Assembly: GCA_963798085.1 (NCBI GenBank)
Contig: CAWCRS010000002.1
Coordinates: forward strand, 1 to 64,000
Source of the DNA: an uncultured Gemmatimonadales bacterium
Lineage (GTDB): Bacteria; Gemmatimonadota; Gemmatimonadetes; Longimicrobiales; RSA9
DNA: 64,000 bases
Direction of reading: 5' to 3'
Under the pieces are notes generated by a model that saw only the letters and a list, made by a program, of their open reading frames with translations, ran no database searches and was not told the origin of the DNA. How positions within the stretch are numbered: the stretch's first letter is position 1; each line of letters begins with the position of its first letter. The translations under genes and the position numbers were made by a program. This document shows positions 1-19,447 of the stretch, piece after piece.

Positions 1-51
1 ACATCTGAGGTAGTCCGTCAAGGGTTTGGGTAGAAGTTATTGGCAAGAGTT

Positions 52-1338
52 TCACGCAGCTTTGGGTAATTGGAGGTCGAGTTTGCGGGCCAGGTATGAG
101 CCTCGGCGTTTGAGGCTGTTGAAGTAGGTGGTTTCGTCGTAGGGGACGCGGTCACGCCAGCAGACAAACATGATGCGTTGCCATTTGAAGGCGAGGGCGC
201 GCACGGCGCTGGGATAAGTTTTACCTCGCGCGATCTGCTCCTTGAGATAGAGCTTGGCCCATTGGCAATGGAGGACTGATTGGAGGGCGTATTCGAAGAA
301 GCTCTGGTGGACGAAGTGAGGCCGGGCCCAACGGCGATGGATCCAATGCTGGTTTTTGCCGCTCTTCTCCTGCACGGGAGCTATCCCGCTATACTGTTGG
401 ATGGCCAGGGCGTTGTGGTAGCGGGAGCGTTCACTCCCAAAAGCACAGGCCAGGCGCGGCGCCAGAGTAGGACCGGCTCCGGGGAAGCTCTTCCAAATGG
501 AAGCATCCTGATGTTGGGCAAAGAGGTGCTCGATCTTCGAGTCGTACTCTTTGAGCGCGACCCCGAGTTGGAGTAATTGATGTGCCAGCATTTTAACCTG
601 GACAAGGGCTGGTTGGATTAAGGCCGCATCGCGGCAGAGTGGGATCATTCCCGCGATGGTCTGGAGGCGTTTTTCAATCACATCCATGCGCCGGCAGTTG
701 TGGGCGTAGTAAAACTTGCGCACACTTTCCTGACGCGCTTTTTGCAGCTCCTGGAGCGAAGGCCACTTGAGCAGGAACTGGCAGCCCAACGGGGCAAAGA
801 GATCCTGGCCGGCCAGTTCCAATGCCTGAGGATAATAACTCTTGAGTGCGTCGCGCAGCATATTGGTAAGAAGAGTGCGCAGGTCAATTGTGCTGCGGCG
901 CGCTTCCAGCAAACGCAACAGCTCCCGGGTCGCTCCATCATTGGCCAGCCAGGGAGTGAGTTTCTCCCGATGATGCAAAACCAATTCCAGGCACACTTGC
1001 GCGTCAGCGGGATCATCCTTGGCCCGGCTGGTTTTAAAAGCCTGGCGATACCGCGCGGCCGTGGCCGGGTTGATCGGATAAAGGACAAAGAAGGGATACT
1101 CCAGGAGCGCGTAAATGAGGGGGCCGCGTGCCTGCTCCAGACAGAGAGCGATTTTCTTTCCCCCGAAACGTTGCTCTAGTCCCTGGGCCCATTGGGCAAT
1201 GGCCTCAGGCGTGTGCTTGAGCGTGGAATTTTCTCTCTTTCCCGTGGCGCAATCATAGAGACAAAGGGCGTGCTCCTGACTCGCCCAATCGATGCCGATC
1301 AAAGCGCCAAATTGGTTCCTGCTGGTGATCGTGTTCAT
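52..1338 (-). CDS. IS110-family DEDD recombinase/transposase
   Basis: N-terminal IGIDWASQEH, CLEQ and KDDPADA (RuvC-like DEDD); C-terminal FPGAGPTLA...YSGIAPVQEKSGK (Tnp domain with conserved Ser). Start at 1338 (MNTITS) preferred over 1428, which overlaps the RNA stem. Confidence 0.93.
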   Translation of the reverse strand: MNTITSRNQFGALIGIDWASQEHALCLYDCATGKRENSTLKHTPEAIAQWAQGLEQRFGGKKIALCLEQARGPLIYALLEYPFFVLYPINPATAARYRQAFKTSRAKDDPADAQVCLELVLHHREKLTPWLANDGATRELLRLLEARRSTIDLRTLLTNMLRDALKSYYPQALELAGQDLFAPLGCQFLLKWPSLQELQKARQESVRKFYYAHNCRRMDVIEKRLQTIAGMIPLCRDAALIQPALVQVKMLAHQLLQLGVALKEYDSKIEHLFAQHQDASIWKSFPGAGPTLAPRLACAFGSERSRYHNALAIQQYSGIAPVQEKSGKNQHWIHRRWARPHFVHQSFFEYALQSVLHCQWAKLYLKEQIARGKTYPSAVRALAFKWQRIMFVCWRDRVPYDETTYFNSLKRRGSYLARKLDLQLPKAA

Positions 1339-1420
1339 AAGTTTATTTTTTTGTGTGTGGTGTCGATGTGATGGTTGATGGTTTCTCTTTCTTTTTGCTG
1401 GGGAGGGGCGAACACGCTTG

Positions 1421-1575
1421 GCTTTCATTCGGCGAAGGCATTATTGTCTGAGATCTCGAATGGATTCTTCATCTGAGGATTCGTTACGAATGAAAGCACG
1501 CCCGGCACCACTCGAAAGTATGGTTAAAATCGTCGAGCGATCGGCGATGCACATTCGTAGTGGGCCGGTGCGTGC
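1421..1575 (-). ncRNA. Putative bridge RNA core: target-binding loop (1496-1575) and donor-binding loop (1421-1497)
   Basis: Stem 1421-1431/1487-1497 encloses ATTATTG (1440-1446) and CATCTGAGG (1470-1478), matching the IS ends. Stem 1496-1516/1554-1575 encloses ATGGTTA (1520-1526) and GGCGATG (1543-1549), matching the attC flanks. Transcript ends unknown. Confidence 0.85.
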
Positions 1576-1722
1576 CCTCTTTCCCAAGTCTAATTGAACA
1601 AGCTCTTGGCCAACCTTATCAACCATGATCATTCCCACCGCGGCAGAGTTATTCACACCCTCGCTCCGCCACCTCTTGAGACCCGCCTCGCTCGGCCATG
1701 AATAACTGTTGGATGACCAATA

Positions 1723-1822
1723 ATGCGATGGAGCCAACCGCGAACCGGCCTTATGCCCAGATTTTTCCGCTCATGAACGCCACTCGTACTTCACGCGGTG
1801 GCTCATCTTGTTCTCGTTAGAT
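1723..1822 (+). other. attC site 1 (R'' end cut off by IS110 copy 1)
   Basis: ATGCGATGGAGCCAACCGCG...CGCGGTGGCTCATCTTGTTCTCGTTAGAT; R' at 1816-1822. Confidence 0.88.
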
Positions 1823-2273
1823 GCCATCTGCGTTCCGAGCGGCCTTCCTGTCATTGTTCACCCTCACAGCGATTGCGAGTGAGCCCACTCAGCTAGAGAT
1901 TGCCTGGGTGTGCGACGTTCACATGGATCGCGGACGTGGCTTTGCGACCGGAACAATCGGTCTCCGCGTCAATTCACAAGTTACCGTCATCACCGACCGG
2001 CCGCTCAACGAGTGCTATGTCATTCCAAGAGATCGATATCAGCTATTCGGTATTCCATCAGATGCCATCACCGCGTGCCACCACGGGTTTGGACCTTCTT
2101 CGGAGGAGCTTTATGTTCTGCATCGCGCAGGCCAGCTCCTCGTTTATGAAAGCGAGAGTCCGATGAGCGCCGCCCAGAAAAACCGAAGATTATTAAGCGT
2201 ATCACATATCGCGCCGCGGGCATCTAACCATGCGATCGAGCGAACGGCGGACCGCTGTGCGCGCCACTTTTGA
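1821..2273 (+). CDS. Cassette 1: hypothetical secreted protein (ORF runs into attC)
   Basis: ATG directly after R'; signal-peptide-like N-terminus. Confidence 0.6.
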   Translation: MPSAFRAAFLSLFTLTAIASEPTQLEIAWVCDVHMDRGRGFATGTIGLRVNSQVTVITDRPLNECYVIPRDRYQLFGIPSDAITACHHGFGPSSEELYVLHRAGQLLVYESESPMSAAQKNRRLLSVSHIAPRASNHAIERTADRCARHF

Positions 2274-2345
2274 GATGACTTCCACACTCCCACTCCGAGC
2301 GACGCGCGGTCTCGTCCGCCGTCGCTCATCTTGTTCTCGTTAGGT
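2222..2345 (+). other. attC site 2
   Basis: ATCTAAC (2222-2228) ... GTTAGGT (2339-2345); internal GAGCGAACGGCGGAC / GTCCGCCGTCGCTC arms. Confidence 0.93.
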
Positions 2346-2347
2346 CC

Positions 2348-2704
2348 ATGGAAGCACTGGTCGCTGTTGTGATTTTCGCCGTCAGCCAAGTGTGCACAAA
2401 CGCCGCTACTTCAGACACAATCACGTTGAAGGAGGCCGTCCGTGATCATTTGCTACTGTTTCACCCCCGTCCGGATTATCCAGATGAGGCGCGTCGTCGA
2501 GGTATTGTCGGCATGGCGGACTTCGAGCTAACCTTTGATTATGAGACCGGCCATCTTCGCGAGGTCCACCTCGCAAAAAGCAGCGGTTCACCTCTGTTGG
2601 ACGCCGCAGCCATTGCTGCCCTGAAACAGTGGAAGGCCAAACCTCGCTCGATTCACCGCCTCCTGGTGCCGCTGGGCTTTGCCACACGCGAGCATTGGCC
2701 TTAA
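2348..2704 (+). CDS. Cassette 2: TonB C-terminal domain protein
   Basis: PRPDYPDEARRRGIVG...KSSGSPLLDAAAIAALKQWK motif. Confidence 0.85.
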   Translation: MEALVAVVIFAVSQVCTNAATSDTITLKEAVRDHLLLFHPRPDYPDEARRRGIVGMADFELTFDYETGHLREVHLAKSSGSPLLDAAAIAALKQWKAKPRSIHRLLVPLGFATREHWP

Positions 2705-2711
2705 GGATCAG

Positions 2712-2842
2712 ACCTAACCAGGCGATGGAGCCAACCCGCCTGAGGCGGGCCGGCGTACGCTCAAGTTTTCCATGACTCCAAGCTCACATCCCGCTGCCAC
2801 GCGCGCCCTCGCCAGTGGTGGCTCATCTTGTTCTCGTTAGAT
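2712..2842 (+). other. attC site 3
   Basis: ACCTAAC (2712-2718) ... GTTAGAT (2836-2842). Confidence 0.92.
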
Positions 2843-2843
2843 C

Positions 2844-3178
2844 GTGAGCGCACTTCGCAGGTTGGCAATCGTCTCTGTGTCTCCTTTAGCGTATTGTTAA
2901 CGCTGACGGTCATGCTATTCCTTGCCACTGAATGGGCGAATCGAAGTGCCCAATTTGCGTTCGGAGATAAGGCGCGTCGTTTGCAAATCGACGGAAAGTC
3001 GGAGGCCTATGTCTTAGAGCACTTCGGGCCGCCTAGTCACACAAACCCGTCGACAGATGGTTCGGGCCACGTGCTCGTATACGTGCCGTGCAAGTGGTCT
3101 TTCTGGCCTAGCTACTCCAAGATTGCCATAGATGATCGCACCAGCACTGTATCCTTTTGGATGATAAACTCCGACTGA
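2844..3178 (+). CDS. Cassette 3: small membrane-anchored hypothetical protein (start uncertain, possible frameshift)
   Basis: Hydrophobic segment then SEAYVLEHFGPP motif; stops just before the next attC. Confidence 0.55.
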
Positions 3179-3181
3179 GCG

Positions 3182-3304
3182 ATCTAACCAGGCGATGGAG
3201 CCAACCGCTACCCGCTGCGCGTTTACATTTTAGATGATTGAAACACTTACACTTCGATTGATGCTCGCCGCCGGTAGCGGTGGCTCATCTTGTTCTCGTT
3301 AGAT
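3182..3304 (+). other. attC site 4
   Basis: ATCTAAC (3182-3188) ... GTTAGAT (3298-3304). Confidence 0.93.
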
Positions 3305-3582
3305 CCAAACGCCCGCTGCGATGATGAGTCGTCATCCTTGTGTCGCCGCAGAGTTGCCGTTATCATGAGTCCAGCGCGTGATCTGCTTTCGATGAAGCTT
3401 TCGGATAATTTCACGATCAAACAGTTGCGAAACCGTAGCCGCTATCGCGAGATGGCACGGTTTCGATCTAACCAGACGCTGGAGCTAACCGCCACCCGTC
3501 GCGCGTTTACTTTTCAGATGGCTAAATCACTATTACTTCGAGCCGAGCGCGCCCTCGGTGGCGGTAGCTGAGCTTATTCTCG
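3299..3582 (+). other. Cassette 4: apparently gene-less cassette
   Basis: About 160 bp between R' and R''; no ORF of convincing length that ends at the attC; hairpin at 3428-3465. Confidence 0.65.
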
Positions 3583-3588
3583 TTAGGT
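3466..3588 (+). other. attC site 5
   Basis: ATCTAAC (3466-3472) ... GTTAGGT (3582-3588). Confidence 0.92.
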
Positions 3589-3591
3589 CTT

Positions 3592-4005
3592 ATGCGTCCT
3601 GGCTTCGTGTTGTTGCTTGCGATTGCCGGAATTCTCACTGGCTGCAAGGCTTTTGAGTCACACGACTTCCTCATTACGCGCGCCACCCCTGGAGACGCGG
3701 CTCGGGTGCAGGCCATTTTGCGAGACGTCGCCGCTGAAGCTGGTATACCACGCGGAAGACCAACGCCGTATGATTCGCCGACGATCGCGCTTTACAAAGA
3801 CCCGCAGGTTCAGCTTCGAGCGAGCGTTTCGCGGGGCAAGATCGGTGTTACACTCATGCGATACGATTGGCCTCCTCCCAAAGCGTTCATCCAAGCCGAT
3901 CGTCTCCTCGTGCAGGCGCTGTCTGCAAGTTTTGAGGGGCGCTTTGGCATCCTAAGCGACCGAGGGGCAGAAGCCGTCGCAGAGCGAACGATCACTGTGT
4001 ATTGA
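3592..4005 (+). CDS. Cassette 5: hypothetical lipoprotein
   Basis: Signal peptide with lipobox LTGC; ORF fills the cassette. Confidence 0.75.
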   Translation: MRPGFVLLLAIAGILTGCKAFESHDFLITRATPGDAARVQAILRDVAAEAGIPRGRPTPYDSPTIALYKDPQVQLRASVSRGKIGVTLMRYDWPPPKAFIQADRLLVQALSASFEGRFGILSDRGAEAVAERTITVY

Positions 4006-4008
4006 AGG

Positions 4009-4131
4009 ACCTAACAAATCGCTCGAGCCAACCGCTACCCGGTGATAAGTTTCACTTTCGATGATTAAAGCACTCATTCCGCATTTCGAGCTCGCCGCCG
4101 GTAGCGGTGGCTCAGCTTTGTCTCGTTAGAC
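4009..4131 (+). other. attC site 6
   Basis: ACCTAAC (4009-4015) ... GTTAGAC (4125-4131). Confidence 0.92.
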
Positions 4132-4134
4132 CTA

Positions 4135-4506
4135 GTGCGCACACGAGTGTTGCTGATTGGTTTTCTGCTTGGGTTCGCTATTGCGACGTCCGGTCAAGTG
4201 ACATCGCCAGATCTTGTGGGAAAATGGATCGGCGGCAGCCCTTCGATTCCCGTCGAGTACACTTTTCGTGCGGATCATTCTTTTCATTACTCGGGGGGCG
4301 ATGTTGTGGGAGCGGGCACTTGGAGGATTCATGGCGGAAAGAAACTAGAACTGATCTATCACTACGACACTAAGCCGATTTCCAGTTCATCGGCTAGGGA
4401 ATGGTTTTTCATTGACTCAATCGGTAAAGGTCGCATACGAGCAAGGCGCTACTCCCGACTCAATGGCCAACTCTTACCTGCCGAGGTATGGACGAAGCAA
4501 CTTTAA
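4135..4506 (+). CDS. Cassette 6: secreted hypothetical protein, lipocalin-like motifs
   Basis: Signal peptide, DLVGKW and GTWRI motifs; ORF fills the cassette. Confidence 0.7.
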   Translation: MRTRVLLIGFLLGFAIATSGQVTSPDLVGKWIGGSPSIPVEYTFRADHSFHYSGGDVVGAGTWRIHGGKKLELIYHYDTKPISSSSAREWFFIDSIGKGRIRARRYSRLNGQLLPAEVWTKQL

Positions 4507-4507
4507 G

Positions 4508-4631
4508 GTCTAACCAGGCGATGCAGCCAACCGCTAGACCGCGCGACGCCTCACTTTCCAATGACTAAAACACGTTCATTCCAGATCACGCTGGCCCTCA
4601 CTAGCGGTGGCTGATCTCGTTCTCGTTAGGT
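4508..4631 (+). other. attC site 7
   Basis: GTCTAAC (4508-4514) ... GTTAGGT (4625-4631). Confidence 0.93.
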
Positions 4632-4633
4632 CT

Positions 4634-5006
4634 ATGAGGCAGATCGTGCCGATAATCAGTGCCCTTGTTATTACCCACAGCGTCGTTGCAGGACAGCAAT
4701 CCGCGACGCCCCCGCGGTATGGGCCCAATGGGTGGGTCCCGTTGTATTGCCCGAAGCCCGAGTATCCTGAATGGGCGCGAGCCAGGCATCTGGAAGGGAG
4801 CGGAGTATTCCTTCTGCGGCTTCGGCCAAATGGCAGTGTCAAATCGGTCGAAGTCGCAGAGAGGTACAGGGCACGCCGTATTAGACCGGAGCTGTGTTCT
4901 CACATTTCGAGAGTGGCGGTTCCAACCGGGATTTGCTAAGAGTATCCCGCAAGTGAAGATCCCGATCAGATTCACTATGGATGGCGCACGCTACGGAGGG
5001 ACCTAA
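4634..5006 (+). CDS. Cassette 7: TonB C-terminal domain protein (frameshift near 4860)
   Basis: PKPEYPEWARARHLEGSG...GSVKSVEV in one frame continues as TGHAVLDRSCVLTFREWRFQP...IPIRF in another. Confidence 0.82.
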
Positions 5007-5124
5007 CCGGGCGATCCAGCGAACACCTTCCCGTGCCGCGTTTACTTTTTAACATGGCCAGTGTATCATTCATTGCAGTTCAGCCTCGCCCCGGAAGGTG
5101 TCGCTGATCTTGTTCTCGTTAGGT
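5001..5124 (+). other. attC site 8
   Basis: ACCTAAC (5001-5007) ... GTTAGGT (5118-5124). Confidence 0.92.
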
Positions 5125-5146
5125 CTGATCCTGCCGGCGCGCTCAT

Positions 5147-5908
5147 ATGGACGTCTTCATCCACAAGAATGACCAGCAGATGGGGCCATTCTCGCCTCAG
5201 GACATTCACGCGATGCTCGAGTGTGGTGAAATCACAACGCAAGATTTCGCGTGGACTGCCGGGCTGCCAGATTGGCAGCCTCTTTCCAGTTTGCTATCAG
5301 CAGAGGAGAAGCCGGCGCGGCCGTCTTCTCCTCTGCCTGCCCAAGTGCTCGCGGGCACCGCTGACCGGCTCAGCCCAGGCGGCGATGGTAACCACAAGAC
5401 ATTAAGCAAACCCTTTATCCTGCTGTCACTCGCGCTGGCGACTGGTATTTGCGTTTTGGGTGGTGGCGTTCTGCTTTACAAGACCCGATCAGATACAGCC
5501 GTTGCTGAAAAGAAGCGAGATGACGCCGCACAGAACGAGCGCTTTCGCTCAGAACTTAACGAGCTACTTGTTGAAGCTGAGCAGGTAAACCTACGCGCGA
5601 AGGAGATATTCACAAACAGAGTGTTGCAGAATCGAGCGCACGACGAAGGAGATCTTGACGAAGCAGTAAAGTATGAGCGAGAGGTAAATCGTGTTCGACC
5701 TCTTTTTGAGTCGCAGTTTCTGACGCTCAAGACGCGGTTTGAACACATGACATTCCCTCCCTCCGTAAAGGGACGTGCCGAGTTTGCGAATGCGGTAAGC
5801 AGCTGGGAACGGCTCGTAAACGAGTACAGCGGCGAAGCCGCTATTGATGCTGAGATGCACTTTGTTGAAGCTAAACGCCAATTCGAATTTTACTTCCGCT
5901 TCCACTAA
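5147..5908 (+). CDS. Cassette 8: GYF_2/DUF4339-domain single-pass membrane protein
   Basis: N-terminal QQMGPFS...GEITTQDFAWTAGLPDWQPL, then a TM helix and a helical C-terminus. Confidence 0.8.
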   Translation: MDVFIHKNDQQMGPFSPQDIHAMLECGEITTQDFAWTAGLPDWQPLSSLLSAEEKPARPSSPLPAQVLAGTADRLSPGGDGNHKTLSKPFILLSLALATGICVLGGGVLLYKTRSDTAVAEKKRDDAAQNERFRSELNELLVEAEQVNLRAKEIFTNRVLQNRAHDEGDLDEAVKYEREVNRVRPLFESQFLTLKTRFEHMTFPPSVKGRAEFANAVSSWERLVNEYSGEAAIDAEMHFVEAKRQFEFYFRFH

Positions 5909-5933
5909 GAACAGAGGAGTTGGATGGGACAAG

Positions 5934-6037
5934 ACCTAACCAATCGCTGGCCGGTTCTCCCTTTCCTTTATGAATACCCAATCATTCCAAGCCACAATCG
6001 TTCCCACCAGCGGTGGCTCAGCTCCGTCTCATTAGGT
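5934..6037 (+). other. attC site 9, degenerate
   Basis: ACCTAAC (5934-5940) ... ATTAGGT (6031-6037, G>A at crossover); left arm GAGCCAACC missing. Confidence 0.8.
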
Positions 6038-6045
6038 CCGCATTG

Positions 6046-6597
6046 ATGTCCTCGCGCGGCTCGAAAGGCATTTTCCACAATCCAGGCTACGACTTTTATC
6101 GAGCGGTTTACCTCATGGCGACCGAGTCCGATGAAGTGCCGGTGAAGCTGGTCGCTCCCTACTTTCGGCCCATTGTTGCACTTATGTGCGCCTGCGCCTG
6201 CGTTGAGGGGTATGTTCACACCTGTGCGCAGCGCAAGGATTCATCATGGCGACCGCAGATTCGCGGTCGGGAGACTATCAAGAGCCGGATGTCCCGCGCA
6301 TACTCGCTCATCGACAAACCTGTGGACTTTTCAACTCAACCGTTCAAGGACATCATGGATTTATTCTCGTGCCGACGGCGTCTTCTCCACCCCGTGCTGC
6401 AGTGGGAGTATCGGAAGCAGAAGAAACCCGTTCCGGATATTTTCGATGAAGTTGCGAAGCAGTTTCCTCTGGCGCGAGTGCTGGCTCTGGTCGAAGCGTT
6501 TCGCAAGCGCATCACAGGCGATTTTGGCCTGCGGGATACTTGGTGGATGCGCTCCACTAACACAACCATCTACGACCTCTCTGACGAACCGACCTAA
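6046..6597 (+). CDS. Cassette 9: hypothetical protein, possibly HEPN-like
   Basis: Helical protein with ACACVEGYVH and LFSCRRRLLHP (Rx4H); stop codon lies within R'' (ACCTAAC 6592-6598). Confidence 0.6.
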   Translation: MSSRGSKGIFHNPGYDFYRAVYLMATESDEVPVKLVAPYFRPIVALMCACACVEGYVHTCAQRKDSSWRPQIRGRETIKSRMSRAYSLIDKPVDFSTQPFKDIMDLFSCRRRLLHPVLQWEYRKQKKPVPDIFDEVAKQFPLARVLALVEAFRKRITGDFGLRDTWWMRSTNTTIYDLSDEPT

Positions 6598-6599
6598 CC

Positions 6600-6885
6600 A
6601 TACATCTGAGGTAGTCCGTCAAGGGTTTGGGTAGAAGTTATTGGCAAGGGTTTCACGCGGCTTTGGGTAATTGGTGGTCGAGTTTGTGGGCGAGATATGA
6701 GCCTCGGCGTTTGAGGCTGTTGAAGTAGGTTGTTTCGTCGTAGGGGACGCGGTCACGCCAGCAGACAAACATGATGCGTTGCCATTTGAAAGCGAGAGCA
6801 CGCACGGCGCTGGGATAAGTTTTACCTCGCGCGATCTGCTCCTTGAGATAAAGCTTGGCCCATTGGCAATGGAGGACTGATTGGA
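6600..6885 (-). mobile_element. IS110 copy 2, partial (3' end of transposase), inserted in attC 10
   Basis: ACCTAACC-AT-ACATCTGAGG...; near-identical to 1-284 with scattered substitutions; similarity ends abruptly at 6885. Confidence 0.93.
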
Positions 6886-8275
6886 CCGCGGCCGGCAGTT
6901 CACCATGTACGGCTTCAACGGCCAGGTGCCGGGGCCGCTCATCCGTGTGCCGCAGAACGCCACCATAACCGTGCGTTATCACAACGCGATCGACCTGCCC
7001 AGCACCGTGCACTGGCACGGTGTGCGCCTGGACAATCATTCCGACGGCGTGCCTGGCATCACGCAGCCCGAGGTGGCGCCGGGCGGCGATTTCGTCTACC
7101 GCGTGCATTTCCCCGATGCGGGCGTGTACTGGTATCACCCGCACGTGCGCGAGGACATCGAGCAGGCCATGGGCCTGTTCGGCAACATGCTGGTGGATTC
7201 GCCCGATCCCGCGTACTACGCGCCGGCCAACCGCGAGGAAGTGCTCACCCTCAATGACCTGCTGATCAACGGCGACACGCTCATTCCGTTCGGCCGGGAA
7301 GGCCCCGACTTCGCGCTCATGGGCCGAGTCGGCAATGTACTGTTAGTGAACGGTGAGCCGGGCTACGCGCTGCGCGTGCAGCAGGGGGCGGTGGTGCGCT
7401 TCCACCTGACCAATGTGTCCAGCTCGCGCACCTGGAACCTCTCCTTCAGCGGCGCACCCATCAAGGTGCTGGCGTCCGACGTCTCCCGCTTCGAGCGCGA
7501 GGAACGCGTGCCCGGCATCGTGCTGGCGCCCGCCGAGCGCTACGTGGTGGATGTGCGCTTCGACAAACCCGGCCGCTTCGCCCTGGTGAACGCCATCCAG
7601 GCCATCAACCACTTCCGCGGCGAGTTCGAGCCGGAAGTCGACACGCTGGGCACCGTCACGGTCGAGCCCGCGCCCGCCTCACCCGACTACGCCCGCCAGT
7701 TCAACACGCTGCGCGCGAACACCGACGTTACCCGCGACATCGACCGCTACCGCAAATACTTCGACAAGCCGCCCGACAAGAAGCTGACGCTGACCCTCCG
7801 GACCACCGGACTGCCACTGCTGACCATCCAGTTCATGAGCATCGACACGGCCTACTTCGCGCCCGTGGAATGGGTGGACGGCATGCCCGACATGAACTGG
7901 CTGTCCACCAGCAGTCAGGTGCACTGGATCCTGCGTGATGACGAAACGGGCAGGGAGAACATGGACATCGACTGGCACGTGCCGGCCGGCTCCGTGATCA
8001 AGCTCCGCCTCTTCAACGACCCGCGCTCCTTCCATCCCATGCAGCATCCCATTCACCTGCACGGACAGCGCATGCTGGTGGTGTCACGCGATGGCGTGCC
8101 CACGCAGAACCTGGTGTGGAAGGACACCGTGCTCATCCCCGTGGGCTCCACCGTGGATCTGCTGATCGACGCCTCCAATCCGGGCGCCTGGATGCTGCAC
8201 TGCCACATCGCGGAGCACCTGCAGTCCGGCATGATGACCGTGTTGCACGTGGACGGCCCCGGCCCCGGCCGGTAG
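6886..8275 (+). CDS. Multicopper oxidase (5'-truncated)
   Basis: HWHG, YWYHPH, HPIHLHG and HCHIAEH copper-binding motifs; no signal peptide or native start present. Confidence 0.92.
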
Positions 8276-8301
8276 CACAACTGGCGGATGAAGGCGACGA
8301 T

Positions 8302-9507
8302 TCAGTGTCGGGGGACCGGCGAGTAGCCCACGCCGTCGGACCACGTCCCGGTCTGTCCATAACCGACGATTACGCCCCGCTCCACATCGACAATCGCGAG
8401 GCGGTTGCGGCCCTGCAGTGTGACGAAGGCCCAGCGGCCGTCGTGCGAAACGGCGACGCCCTCGGGCGACGGCGAGCCCGGCACTTCGGCCGTCGTGACC
8501 AGGCTGTCACGGGCAACGGTGATCGTCGCGCGGGCGCGCCGCGTGGCGACGTCGTACAGACGGATCTCGCCCTTGACCGGATCCGAGATGACGGCGCGCC
8601 GGCCATCGCCGGAAATGCCAATGCGGTAGGGCAGACCGAAGCCGCGCAGCGTGTCGGCGGGAAGGCCGGTGCGCAGATTCACGATGACAACGACGCTGTC
8701 CTGGTTGCTGCCGGCCCACGCTTCGCGCCCATCCGGTGTGATGGCGATGCCCTCGGGCTGCCGCGCCACGCGGATCACGACCGGCTCCGTCGTCCCCAGC
8801 GGTTCGAGTGATGATATCGTGTTATCCGCGATGTTCGACGTGACCATCCGGTCGCCTGCCGCGGAGAGGCCGAGCATGTGCGTGGTGCGCCCGTTCGTGG
8901 GCACCGCGCGGATGACGTGGCCAGAGCGGAAATCCAGCAGCAGCACAGCATGACTGACCTCGGACGTGACCGCGACGAGGGTATCGCCCGGGAAGAACGC
9001 CATGCCGTGCGGCCTGCGGTATTCGCCCAGGTCGATCGTGCGCGTCACCTCGAGGCGGGCAATGTCGATCACCGTGATGCTGCTGCCCCCCTGTTCACGC
9101 GTGCCGTAATTGCTGACCAGGGCCCAGCGCCCGTCGCGCGAGATCGTCACTTCGTGCGGGCCCTGTCCCGTGGGCAGCGTCGCCAGCACACGGCCGGTCG
9201 CGGCCTCCAGCACGGTCGCCGTGTGGTCGCGCATGTTGCTCACCACGACCGTGCCGGGCGGACCGGGCGATTGCGGCCCTTCCCGTAACCCGCCTTCCGC
9301 CGTCAGCAGTGCCATGCCGGCCAGCAGCGCCACGCTTCGGGCCCTGCGCCAGCGCCGGCGCAGTGCCGCTGCGGATGCCGGCGCAATCGCGACCGGCCCT
9401 GCACGCAACATCCTGCCGTCTGCGGCCGCGAGCGCGTCACGCGAGACTCGACGGAACCGCCGTGCAGCGGATCGCGGCGCGTGTGTTTCACTGTGTGGTT
9501 GCCTCAT
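8302..9507 (-). CDS. YncE/YVTN-type beta-propeller protein (true start probably further downstream)
   Basis: Repeats GPHEVTISRDGR, PEGIAITPDGR, PEGVAVSHDGR. Confidence 0.8.
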   Translation of the reverse strand: MRQPHSETHAPRSAARRFRRVSRDALAAADGRMLRAGPVAIAPASAAALRRRWRRARSVALLAGMALLTAEGGLREGPQSPGPPGTVVVSNMRDHTATVLEAATGRVLATLPTGQGPHEVTISRDGRWALVSNYGTREQGGSSITVIDIARLEVTRTIDLGEYRRPHGMAFFPGDTLVAVTSEVSHAVLLLDFRSGHVIRAVPTNGRTTHMLGLSAAGDRMVTSNIADNTISSLEPLGTTEPVVIRVARQPEGIAITPDGREAWAGSNQDSVVVIVNLRTGLPADTLRGFGLPYRIGISGDGRRAVISDPVKGEIRLYDVATRRARATITVARDSLVTTAEVPGSPSPEGVAVSHDGRWAFVTLQGRNRLAIVDVERGVIVGYGQTGTWSDGVGYSPVPRH

Positions 9508-11302: not shown

Positions 11303-12642
11303 CTACTTCATGCCGATGCCGTGCGGGCGCGCCGGGCCCGTGGCAAACGCGGTGTTGAAGTCGATGATGTGGAAGTTGGGCGCTACGCTCAGGCCGTCAT
11401 CGCTCACGTCGAGGACGCGCACCATGTGGTCGCCTTCGAAATGGATCTTGCCGAAGTCATCCTCGTTGAGGAAGTAGTCGGTCACGACGAGGCGGCGGTC
11501 GTCGTGTGTGAGGTGAATCGAATGCGGCCCCGCGTTGAGTCCGAAGCTCACGACCGAGACCTGTTTGAACTGCGTCCGGTTCGTGATGTCGAGCATGCCC
11601 ACCTGGCCCGCCTGGAACGAGGAGAAGATGAGACGCCGCCCGCTGCGCGGCATGGCCAGCAGCTGCACCATGCCGCCGGGCACCGGTACTTCGACGTGCG
11701 GCACGATGTCCTCGCAGTCGAACGACTGCACGAAGCTGCCGTCCGTGGGATCGACGGTGTAGACCAGGCCCGTGAACATGTTCGCCGTGACCGCGCGGCC
11801 GTGCGGGTCGCCCGGGATCAGCTTCACGTCCATGGTGCCGGCATTGTCGGGCAGGAACACGCTGCGCGTGATGCGGCGCTCGCGCAGGTTCCAGAAGCGG
11901 AGCGAGCTGCGCAGCTCCAGCGGGCCGCTCCAGACGTTGAGCGTGGTCACCGGATTCATGTAGTCGCTGGTGACCAGCATGTTGCGCGTGAAGTCGGCAT
12001 CGATGCCGTGCGGATTGAACTGGCCGTCATCGGGCGAGTGCCGCGGGTACTCGCTCGACGAGTTTGAGGTTCCGGTCGAATTCGACGACGCGTCCGCCCG
12101 GCCCTCCGCTCGCCGAGCCCATGTTCGTGACCAGGAATCCGCCTTCCGGCAGCGGCAGGAAGTCATCGGTTATGCTGGAGTTAGGCGCGTGGGTCGAGAA
12201 CATGAACTTCGGATGCCGTGCATCCGTGATGTCGAAGAAGAAGATGTCGTTCTGGCCCTTGAGCACGCTGAGGAGCCCGCCGCACGCCAGCATCTTCTGG
12301 TCCCGCGGACGTGTGGCAGTGGTGCGGCTCGTTGCCGATGTTGCCGGGCGGCGGGACGGGCACGGTGCCGAGCACCTTGCCGTAGGTCTTCGAGTGCCGG
12401 TCGAAATCGATGACCGCGAGGAAGTCGGGCGAAGTGTGGGCCTGATTGCTGGCCCAGACATACAGCGTGGTGGCCTCGTCGTGCCAGCCGCCATGCGCTT
12501 CGCCGCCGCCGCCCACGCGATCCGCGGCAATACCGGTGGTGGACGACGTCACATCGTCGCCCCGATCACAGCTTCCGATGGCCGCTGCCGTGCCCAGTGC
12601 CGCCAGGAGTAGAGCCAGCCGAACCCGCGAATCCGTACGCAT
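11303..12642 (-). CDS. Selenium-binding protein (SBP56)/methanethiol-oxidase-like protein, frameshifted
   Basis: PDFLAVIDFD..S.TYGKV, GNEPHH, NPHGI and GPARPHG motifs across three frames; lipoprotein-like signal (AIGSC). Confidence 0.78.
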
Positions 12643-12717
12643 ACGACCTCGAGGTGAGAGACGTGCCGATTCTGCCTGACATGTCTCTGCGAAGTTTCCG
12701 GGCGGGGGTGGACATTG
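12639..12717. repeat. 79-bp direct repeat, copy 1
   Basis: GCATACGACCTCGAGG...GGTGGACATTG, identical to 19204-19282. Confidence 0.95.
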
Positions 12718-13350
12718 GCCGGCCTTCGCAGGGAGGGGTACCGGCTTGCAGGCCTTCCCGGGCCTATCGACGCATGGCCCCGGGGAACGCCAGGTTGCCT
12801 ACCGGGGATCTGGCCTGCGCGAGTTCAAACGAGGCCGCTCGGACTGCCGTTCCGAAGCAGAAGCCGTGCGACGTGCACTTTCATACAACCAACGGCACGC
12901 GCAGGTCGATCGCCCAATGTCATGTCGGCGCTTGATCCCTCCCTCAATTGGTACGAGCTGGATGGACCCTGGTAGCTGTTGAGCTTGTCAGACACACAAC
13001 ATATGTTCCTGAGGCATGCCGCAGATTTTTCGAGTAACCGGCGCCCACATCGTTTGACGCATCCGTCACTAACCGGCTCATTGAGCGAAGGCGCCTACCG
13101 AACCCGGCTTTAGCAGGTCATGTACAATTCTACCACAGATTTGGGCGAATCCGCTCGAGGTGACACTTGAGCTCTCGACCGCACTCCGCCCGCAGCCTCG
13201 AGGACCTGAAGCGAATTGCCCAACAGCACGAAGATGATGCCCACCGTGCTCCGTGAGCTGCATTCCGAGTTGTCTCACCGCTATACGTACGCCGCGCGTC
13301 ATCTTCGGCAGACGATTTCAGATCAGCTCGAGAAGCTCGGGGCGCCCGCA

Positions 13351-19033: not shown

Positions 19034-19207
19034 TTACCGGCCCACCGCATTGATCATGTCGAAGATCGGCAGGTACATGGCCACGATCATGCCGCCGACG
19101 ATCACGCCCAGGAACACGATCATCGAGATGGGCTCGAGGGCAGACAGCAGGGCCTGCACCGCCGCGTCCACTTCTTCGTCGTAGAAGCCGGCGATCTTGG
19201 TCAGCAT
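19034..19207 (-). pseudogene. Duplicated pilC 3' fragment (57 codons, open)
   Basis: [26 protein letters not shown]...[14 protein letters not shown], a diverged copy of 20569-20740. Confidence 0.9.
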
Positions 19208-19282
19208 ACGACCTCGAGGTGAGAGACGTGCCGATTCTGCCTGACATGTCTCTGCGAAGTTTCCGGGCGGGGGTGGACATTG
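19204..19282. repeat. 79-bp direct repeat, copy 2
   Basis: Identical to 12639-12717. Confidence 0.95.
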
Positions 19283-19447
19283 CCCGCTTGCGCGAGGCTC
19301 GTGTTACGCGTGGGGCGGTCGTTCCGGCGCGGTCGCCGAGGACGCCGGGCGAGCCTGAAGATCACGCTCCGCCGGGCGCGCTACGCCTGGCGCCCGCCGT
19401 GGACGCAGCGTCACACGGCGGGCCTTGTCAGGCGAGGCACTGTGCGG

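Follow-up and report, generated by a model that had tools for sequence, protein, structure and literature searches.

An IS110-group element in an integron cassette array

The window analysed here is the 64,000 nucleotides (nt) at the start of contig CAWCRS010000002.1, from an uncultured Gemmatimonadales bacterium (GenBank assembly GCA_963798085.1). Its first 6,885 nt hold an integron cassette array and two copies of an insertion sequence (IS) of the IS110 group, each adjoining an attC recombination site, and the element appears to carry a bridge RNA directed against attC. The features of this stretch and of the DNA that follows it are:

1-1722, minus strand: copy 1 of the IS110-group element, complete, with its ends set by alignment with related loci
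52-1338, minus strand: intact gene for a DEDD recombinase of 428 amino acids (Pfam PF01548 and PF02371; NCBIfam NF033542)
1723-1724, minus strand: core dinucleotide AT at the left junction of copy 1, derived from the target
1725-1822, plus strand: remainder of the attC interrupted by copy 1, with L'', variable region, L' and R', its R'' lost beyond the contig start
1823-6601, plus strand: array of about nine gene cassettes with eight intact attC sites, at 2222, 2712, 3182, 3466, 4009, 4508, 5001 and 5934 (the last degenerate)
6592-6601, plus strand: R'' box, one spacer base and core at the right junction of copy 2; the R'' holds the stop codon of the cassette gene 6013-6597
6602-6885, minus strand: copy 2, 284 nt, comprising the right end and the last 77 recombinase codons only
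6885-6886: abrupt, probably chimeric join between foreign DNA of 55% G+C and host DNA of 67% G+C
6886-8275, plus strand: 5'-truncated gene for a multicopper oxidase of a host-family type

The recombinase of copy 1 matched PF01548 (E 1e-22) and PF02371 (E 1e-8) and scored 150.1 bits against NF033542, for which the cut-off is 140; an upstream ATG at 1428 would lengthen it to 458 amino acids. Its predicted catalytic residues, taken from motif positions and from an alignment to IS621, are D17, E68, D109, D112 and S326. By these predicted domains and residues the element belongs to the IS110 family. The left end measures 386 nt and the right end 51 nt, which puts the long non-coding region upstream of the gene, the IS110-group layout that the earlier note on this DNA had recognised.

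The left end of copy 1 runs to 1722 and is followed by AT (1723-1724) and by GCGATGGAGCC from 1725, while at the right junction of copy 2 ACCTAACC (6592-6599) and AT (6600-6601) precede the right end of the IS, which starts at 6602. Both junctions had been located correctly in the earlier note; the intact attC reconstructed there from the pair is a composite of two different sites. Copy 1 starts with the first base of the contig, so that its right junction is not visible, and the left part of copy 2 is missing. With one junction visible per copy, site-specificity cannot be proved from the window by itself; the proof comes from the related loci described below.

Copy 2 is 96.1% identical to copy 1 and is its sole other match in the genome. 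The two differ by 11 substitutions (8 synonymous, 2 non-synonymous and 1 non-coding) and by no insertion or deletion, a pattern that accords with two alleles better than with sequencing error. A single insertion in a circular molecule of 6.6 kb, linearised with a terminal overlap and with the differences as polishing noise, would explain why copy 1 has only a left junction, copy 2 only a right one, and why the contig starts exactly at an IS end. We consider this quite improbable given that 8 of the 10 coding substitutions are synonymous, that indels are absent, and that copy 2 is nearer to the copy in genome G190, from the same order as a Candidatus Udaeobacter genome, (5 differences) than to copy 1 (11 differences).

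A predicted bridge RNA matches attC and the ends of the element

The long left end contains a predicted RNA with the following parts:

1421-1575, minus strand: predicted bridge RNA with a two-loop fold, the target-binding loop 5' of the donor-binding loop
1543-1552, minus strand: left target guide, matching the L''-side arm of attC
1518-1527, minus strand: right target guide with handshake bases, complementary to the core and to GGTTA of the R'' side
1470-1479, minus strand: left donor guide, matching the right end of the element
1437-1446, minus strand: right donor guide with handshake bases, complementary to the left-junction sequence

The fold of 1421-1575 has a free energy of -54.7 kcal/mol (z -4.09), and none of 200 shuffled sequences was equally stable. 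Across 19 elements, 14 of the 20 consensus pairs show two-sided changes. The four guides, named as in PMC11208160, follow the order known from IS621 (left target, right target, left donor, right donor). A search of positions 1-7000 against Rfam gave no match at E values up to 1. The fold and the guides point to a bridge RNA whose target and donor loops are complementary to both substrates.

Sister elements at 40-47% identity have the same RNA scaffold with other guides and other targets. Over nine target classes the cognate guide-target score averaged 14.0 out of 16 (13-16 in eight classes and 10 in one), compared to a mean of 8.4 and a maximum of 12 for the 72 non-cognate pairs. Guide and target also covary inside the clade of close relatives defined below, at position -7 (25/7 vs 1/10; p = 9e-5) and at position -4 (36/4 vs 2/3; p = 0.02), in 49 flanks. 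The handshake bases, a concept taken from PMC11208158, read GC in the donor loop of all 76 loci and AC (56 loci) or AG (20 loci) in the target loop, counted before de-duplication. In the window element they would form 2 Watson-Crick pairs before the exchange of the top strands and 4 after it; in IS621 such an asymmetry has been shown to drive insertion and to suppress excision (PMC13626964).

Related copies occupy the same position of attC

Scans of genome and metagenome contigs yielded 25 and 79 loci, and the close clade comprises 94 loci, namely those with at least 60% identity and three frameshifted ones. Among its distinct junctions, 61 of 62 on the right run on into the R'' box from one and the same base, and 49 of 53 on the left enter the L'' arm in register; by our reading two of the four remaining left junctions are one base off, and two are unrelated to attC. 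The proposal that both window copies sit at the same attC position in the same orientation is thus borne out through the related loci, and the copies sought as counter-evidence, at unrelated non-attC sites, were found at attC. Because attC motifs are oriented, all such insertions are antisense to the cassettes. They lie at the R'' end of attC, the same end and orientation as in the previously described IS1111-attC group, 3 nt nearer to R''. The far half of attC was recognised by the strict family motif in 24 of the 41 flanks of sufficient length, and inspection of 14 misses revealed a variant far half in 7, a probable one in 1 and none in 6.

The sites of the window have the architecture of attC, with inverted arms (R''-L''...L'-R') and an extrahelical base. 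An integron integrase scored above the cut-off in 4 of 5 carrier genomes (none lies in the window), and the same attC motif adjoins an integron integrase in 4 of 4 loci checked; the sites are therefore integron sites. When the bottom strands were folded, seven of the eight intact attC sites of the window gave -21.9 to -27.0 kcal/mol and one gave -9.0 kcal/mol. This folding, together with the fact that the three known attC-targeting classes all use the same strand and end, would suit structural recognition of a folded single-stranded attC hairpin, as by group IIC-attC introns or by the integrase, with the guide matches secondary. Such recognition is very unlikely to be the explanation here, since the guides track linear sequence in sisters whose targets are not attC and in several of the occupied sites there is no far half with which to fold.

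Overall, we consider it highly probable that the element represents a bridge-recombinase lineage of the IS110 group, found mostly in Chthoniobacterales (Verrucomicrobiota), with an RNA programmed against the R''/L'' arm of the attC sites of that group, and that positions 1-6885 are most likely foreign DNA joined chimerically to the host contig. Several observations weigh against this interpretation. The within-clade covariation is partly phylogenetic: most C-guides belong to one sub-clade, and kin are not independent. The guide-target scoring started from 22 chosen loci, of which 6 were unparsed and 7 dropped as target-class repeats, and the score of just 10 belongs to ISEsa2, for which the parser had taken a wrong left end. 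The left junctions of L020 and L034 and the right junction of L029 are not attC, all three attC parts were recognised by the strict motif in just 17 of 37 elements with two junctions, and the 6 inspected misses named above have no evident far half. Many of the loci are short-read contigs in which flanks can mis-pair across the 1.7-kb repeat, and for that reason junctions were counted singly. By our reading no canonical -10 follows the -35-like hexamer at 16-21 at a spacing of 16-18 nt. No RNA, no circle and no empty-versus-filled pair of one same site was seen.

Apart from these counts, one left flank was observed to recur with differing right flanks, and vice versa (L048, L049, L052, L053, L067; L047, L050, L069; L037, L039, L043, L081). 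The recurrence could reflect either short-read mis-pairing or cassette shuffling by recombination between IS copies.

The core dinucleotide differs between left and right junctions

According to the earlier note, only the AT dinucleotide was shared by the two ends. Over the clade this did not hold, as only the T is common: the right-junction core is AT in 61 of 62 cases, while the 49 distinct left junctions have AT (25), CT (12), TT (11) or CC (1). A first core base other than A therefore occurs at 24 of 49 left junctions and at 0 of 61 right junctions, with no reciprocal junction. We then compared these with empty attC sites, using motif-independent counts that replaced an earlier census dependent on the guide motif. 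AT was the core of 7 of 30 empty sites in flanks, 1 of 47 in G190 and 1 of 8 in the window. T was significantly more frequent at the second position in occupied sites (48 of 49) than in empty ones (24 of 30; p = 0.01). The second-position T is thus selected, and either targets with AT are preferred or the left core undergoes occasional conversion. The idea that AT cores in empty sites are scars of earlier excision was not supported, AT being found at 1 of 47 sites in G190 and 1 of 8 in the window.

We infer the mechanism by analogy with IS621. The element would circularise and its joined ends would fire a promoter; the RNA and a recombinase tetramer would cut the top strands on the 3' side of the core and swap them. 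Cutting there would leave the target core at the left and the donor core at the right of the top strand, so that after exchange the left junction would keep the core of the target and the right junction the AT of the donor, and the rise from 2 to 4 Watson-Crick handshake pairs would bias the reaction towards insertion. The missing reciprocal class, as read from natural junctions, suggests inheritance of this strand alone or an overlap of a single base.

Terminal features of the element

Four further features were recognised near the ends:

9-16: short, imperfect sub-terminal inverted repeat, right half (pairs with 1711-1718)
1711-1718: left half of the same repeat (partner 9-16)
16-21, minus strand: -35-like hexamer, conserved in the right end and directed towards the circle junction, a putative part of a promoter
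1647-1707, minus strand: two inverted repeats (1698-1707 and 1647-1656) that form a pair at the 5' end of the left end, including a DnaA-box-like 9-mer at 1649-1657

No long perfect sub-terminal repeat was present, the best exact match within the 40-nt ends being 6 nt. The earlier note had seen no such repeats; a short imperfect 8-bp one, with 6 of 8 matches in the window element, flanks the donor site. Over 20 distinct end pairs this repeat averages 5.9 matches out of 8, compared to at most 3.85 in shifted registers, in a register picked after the data were seen. The sub-terminal repeats are thus short and imperfect, in keeping with the IS110 group, where they are absent or short and imperfect. 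As to the promoter, we read a TATTAT at a spacing of 14 nt from the -35-like hexamer, and a promoter scan of the linear element found no site.

The 9-mer at 1649-1657, which we take to be DnaA-box-like and hence a candidate site only, occurs in 58 of 96 distinct left ends, whereas none of 65 upstream control windows and 2% of shuffles contained it; the kin counted are not independent. It forms half of an inverted pair conserved down to relatives with 30% identity. Folding of this 5' hairpin alone was no better than chance (z -1.44), and a single literature search turned up no paper on DnaA boxes at the ends of IS110 elements. Perfect DnaA-like boxes were rare in right ends (4 of 66), which led us to abandon a symmetric DnaA model.

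Consequences for the cassette array

Two of the cassette products carry a TonB_C domain and one a GYF_2 domain; the rest have no Pfam match. The insertion leaves intact the stop codon of the upstream cassette gene, which lies inside R''. It parts R'' from L'' by 1.7 kb, so the split attC should be unusable by the integrase, and the two neighbouring cassettes should move, with the IS between them, only as one block via the flanking attC sites. An equivalent immobilising effect has been proposed for ISPa21, on evidence called limited (PMC11616780). As the element faces against the array, its RNA would not be produced by read-through from the cassette promoter, and the element may stay quiet for that reason.

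The earlier note had expected excision of the cassette to be blocked until the IS leaves and restores the site. The separation of R'' from L'' agrees with the first part; restoration seems optimistic. The handshake bias favours insertion, and a preprint (10.64898/2026.08.31.748434) argues for a copy-out process that leaves the donor site filled, so that restoration of attC is possible but probably rare.

Two other observations concern the array. In the attC family of the window (e.g. 3182-3304) the L'-R' spacer is 8 nt, compared to 5 nt on the R'' side and to the usual attC spacer of 5-6 nt. From 3180-3305 to 3464-3589 runs a short cassette of 284 nt with no clear open reading frame, and near-identical short cassettes stand in tandem in G190.

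Origin of positions 1-6885

At 6885/6886 the IS is cut mid-gene and joined to the truncated oxidase. Positions 1-6885 have 53-55% G+C, compared to 67% beyond, and hold the most deviant 5-kb interval of the genome by tetranucleotides. Their attC motif was found nowhere else in the genome and in none of 60 host relatives (none of 57 without three that are unpublished), and is present in 5 of 5 Chthoniobacterales-type genomes holding clade members. G190 carries the IS at 95% identity and several of the cassettes at 93-99%. On the other side of the join the DNA matches host relatives (24 of 40, three of them unpublished), and in genome G013 the oxidase gene continues upstream of the join point. 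A tblastn search of the genome with the N-terminus of a paralogue did not find the missing 5' part of the oxidase. In one sequencing run, which shared 8% of its sequence words with 5900-7900 when these were counted over that interval, the matches to 1-9000 were confined to short pieces of distant relatives; none crossed 6885/6886, and the run is uninformative on the join.

From its composition and matches, the stretch is most likely a foreign array of Chthoniobacterales type, joined by a chimera of assembly or of reads. A true transfer of the array into the host genome, with a biological join, would be in line with the host having its own integron integrase on contig C1 and with one clade member in a Bryobacterales-labelled contig (L009). 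It is unlikely, as the join cuts both the IS gene and the oxidase gene mid-frame with the 5' part of the latter not found in the genome, neither a further copy of the IS nor of its attC type exists in the genome, the motif is absent from all 60 relatives, and the stretch is located at the end of a contig. Whether the join is a chimera does not affect the biology of the element. Together with the bridge RNA, the likely chimeric join is what the earlier note had overlooked; its interpretation is on the whole supported. Flagging this probable chimeric contig end matters, since the array would otherwise be credited to the wrong phylum.

The host integron integrase (G000:C1:447485-448429; L001) is accompanied by toxin-antitoxin-like cassettes with a different type of attC. 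Further into the window, an 83-nt direct repeat (12639-12721 and 19204-19286; 99% identical, 6565 nt apart) brackets a region of lower G+C with a DUF4011/helicase gene.

Phylogeny and repeated targeting of attC

We compared the recombinase with ISKpn4, ISPa21, ISPpu24 and ISPa62, members of the IS1111-attC group whose sequences were taken from plasmid records. In this comparison, chosen beforehand for the claim that the lineage is separate from that group, BLASTP gave no match below E 0.3, and in a tree of 23 rows the two attC groups lie far apart, a joint clade being rejected by the approximately unbiased test (p-AU = 6.6e-62). The separateness claimed in the earlier note therefore stands. 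That the element is an IS1111-attC member with an atypical layout is hardly conceivable. The shared target class, attC end and antisense orientation (PMC3001079; loci L170, L172 and L173) would agree with it, and a few IS1111 elements do have an upstream non-coding region (PMC11187229, section 6). Besides the BLASTP and tree results, a recombinase of 428 vs 347 amino acids, the lack of a 12-13-bp repeat, and a core 2-3 nt from R'' vs 5-6 nt in ISKpn4, ISPpu24 and ISPa62 speak against it.

In a tree of 35 rows, with target labels set by our reading of the flanks, the 11 rows of the clade group together (99/97), within a set of sisters that have other targets. Two more distant relatives also adjoin attC. 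One, L022 (L022:2755-4290), is 45% identical and frameshifted and lies at attC in a Chromatiales-labelled cassette array, with different guides; a second right-end remnant (L022:1660-1690) is at another attC of the same array. The other, L145 (L145:1290-1325), is 36% identical and lies in a cassette array with its right end directly next to an R''-like box, its left end falling beyond the contig edge. An integron integrase is present in both genomes. L022 groups with ISEsa2, and a single origin with the clade is rejected (p-AU = 0.002); for the clade and L145, which has a long branch, a single origin is not rejected (p-AU = 0.12). Separate origins of attC targeting are the simplest reading of these trees, short of proof because the tree has no firm root and gains and losses are inseparable. 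The two other IS110 proteins of the host (L114 and L115) are unrelated to the element.

We offer, as a tentative possibility, a broader view in which RNA-guided IS110-family elements converged on attC at least three times (the IS1111-attC group, this clade, the L022 lineage, and perhaps L145 and an IS621-related set). The core footprint, with the target base at the left and the donor AT at the right, would fit top-strand-only transfer or a one-base effective core, and not a two-base heteroduplex segregating at replication, and the DnaA-box-like 9-mers may tie transposition to replication.

If correct, these findings would add a second bridge-recombinase branch that colonises integron arrays, in one of the commonest groups of soil bacteria, and would mean that guides were reprogrammed towards attC more than once. 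The landing site that the element offers would be gene-neutral and able to freeze cassette order. Natural junctions with a mismatched first core base bear on a question open in 2026, whether both strands are exchanged or one is transferred.

Comparison with known systems

The mechanism (a bridge RNA) and the target class (attC) are each known; we regard the element as representing a well-supported new lineage that unites the two, a pairing which we did not find named in print, with repeated convergence and a core asymmetry. In the full-text literature, with subscription papers and ISfinder outside the search, we found no paper in which an attC-targeting element of the IS110 group with an upstream guide RNA is named, and bioRxiv supplements may name such elements. 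What counts against novelty is that targets 136-146 of PMC11208160 (Extended Data Fig. 5d file) look, by our reading, like unannotated R'' ends of attC; in the main text of that paper, attC occurs only in a reference. Targeting of attC by IS1111-group elements and their seekRNAs are already published (PMC11187229, PMC3001079).

The IS1111-attC group (ISKpn4, ISPa21, ISPpu24 and ISPa62) resembles the present element in being RNA-guided, site- and orientation-specific, and antisense at the R'' end. It differs in belonging to another family branch, with the guide RNA downstream of the gene: L170-L173 have about 260 nt downstream of the gene vs 51 nt here and 12-13-bp sub-terminal repeats that are absent here, and 6 nt separate their end from the GTTA of R'' vs 3 nt here. 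The group reportedly includes ISPst6 and ISPa25, and Tetu & Holmes 2008 and Post & Hall 2009 are said to be its sources. At L171, a copy of the ISPa21 family lies in a plasmid at a non-attC site, apparently an off-target insertion. An IS5075 search of plasmids (at least 5,000 records) did not have the attC group among the matches listed, and a plasmid backbone that we read contained no IS1111 element.

Group IIC-attC introns likewise insert into the bottom strand, close to the same attC end (PMC3001079); they are retroelements, with an unrelated enzyme and targeting mechanism.

The nearest named element is ISEsa2, placed by ISfinder in the IS110 family (40% identity over 415 amino acids), which has the same RNA scaffold and similar ends and differs in its guides, its non-attC target and its occurrence on Enterobacterales plasmids. 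It is grouped with ISCfr13, ISCps4 and ISCps5 in Supplementary Table 1 of PMC11208160. On plasmids and prophages, the target of ISEsa2 (L113) and its close relatives L179 and L174 is a repeated intergenic motif that resembles a palindrome.

The closest mechanistic parallel is with IS621, whose bridge RNA was described by Durrant 2024 (PMC11208160), Hiraizumi 2024 (PMC11208158) and Hiraizumi 2026 (PMC13626964). Both are of the IS110 group, with the RNA in a long left end, the target loop before the donor loop and four guides, and both combine handshake bases that favour insertion, a DEDD plus serine recombinase and a repeated intergenic palindromic target. The recombinase of the present element, at 428 amino acids, is only weakly similar to that of IS621 (E 2e-5), and where IS621 targets the repetitive extragenic palindrome (REP), the present element targets attC, with a donor core of AT and a first target core base that is free to vary.

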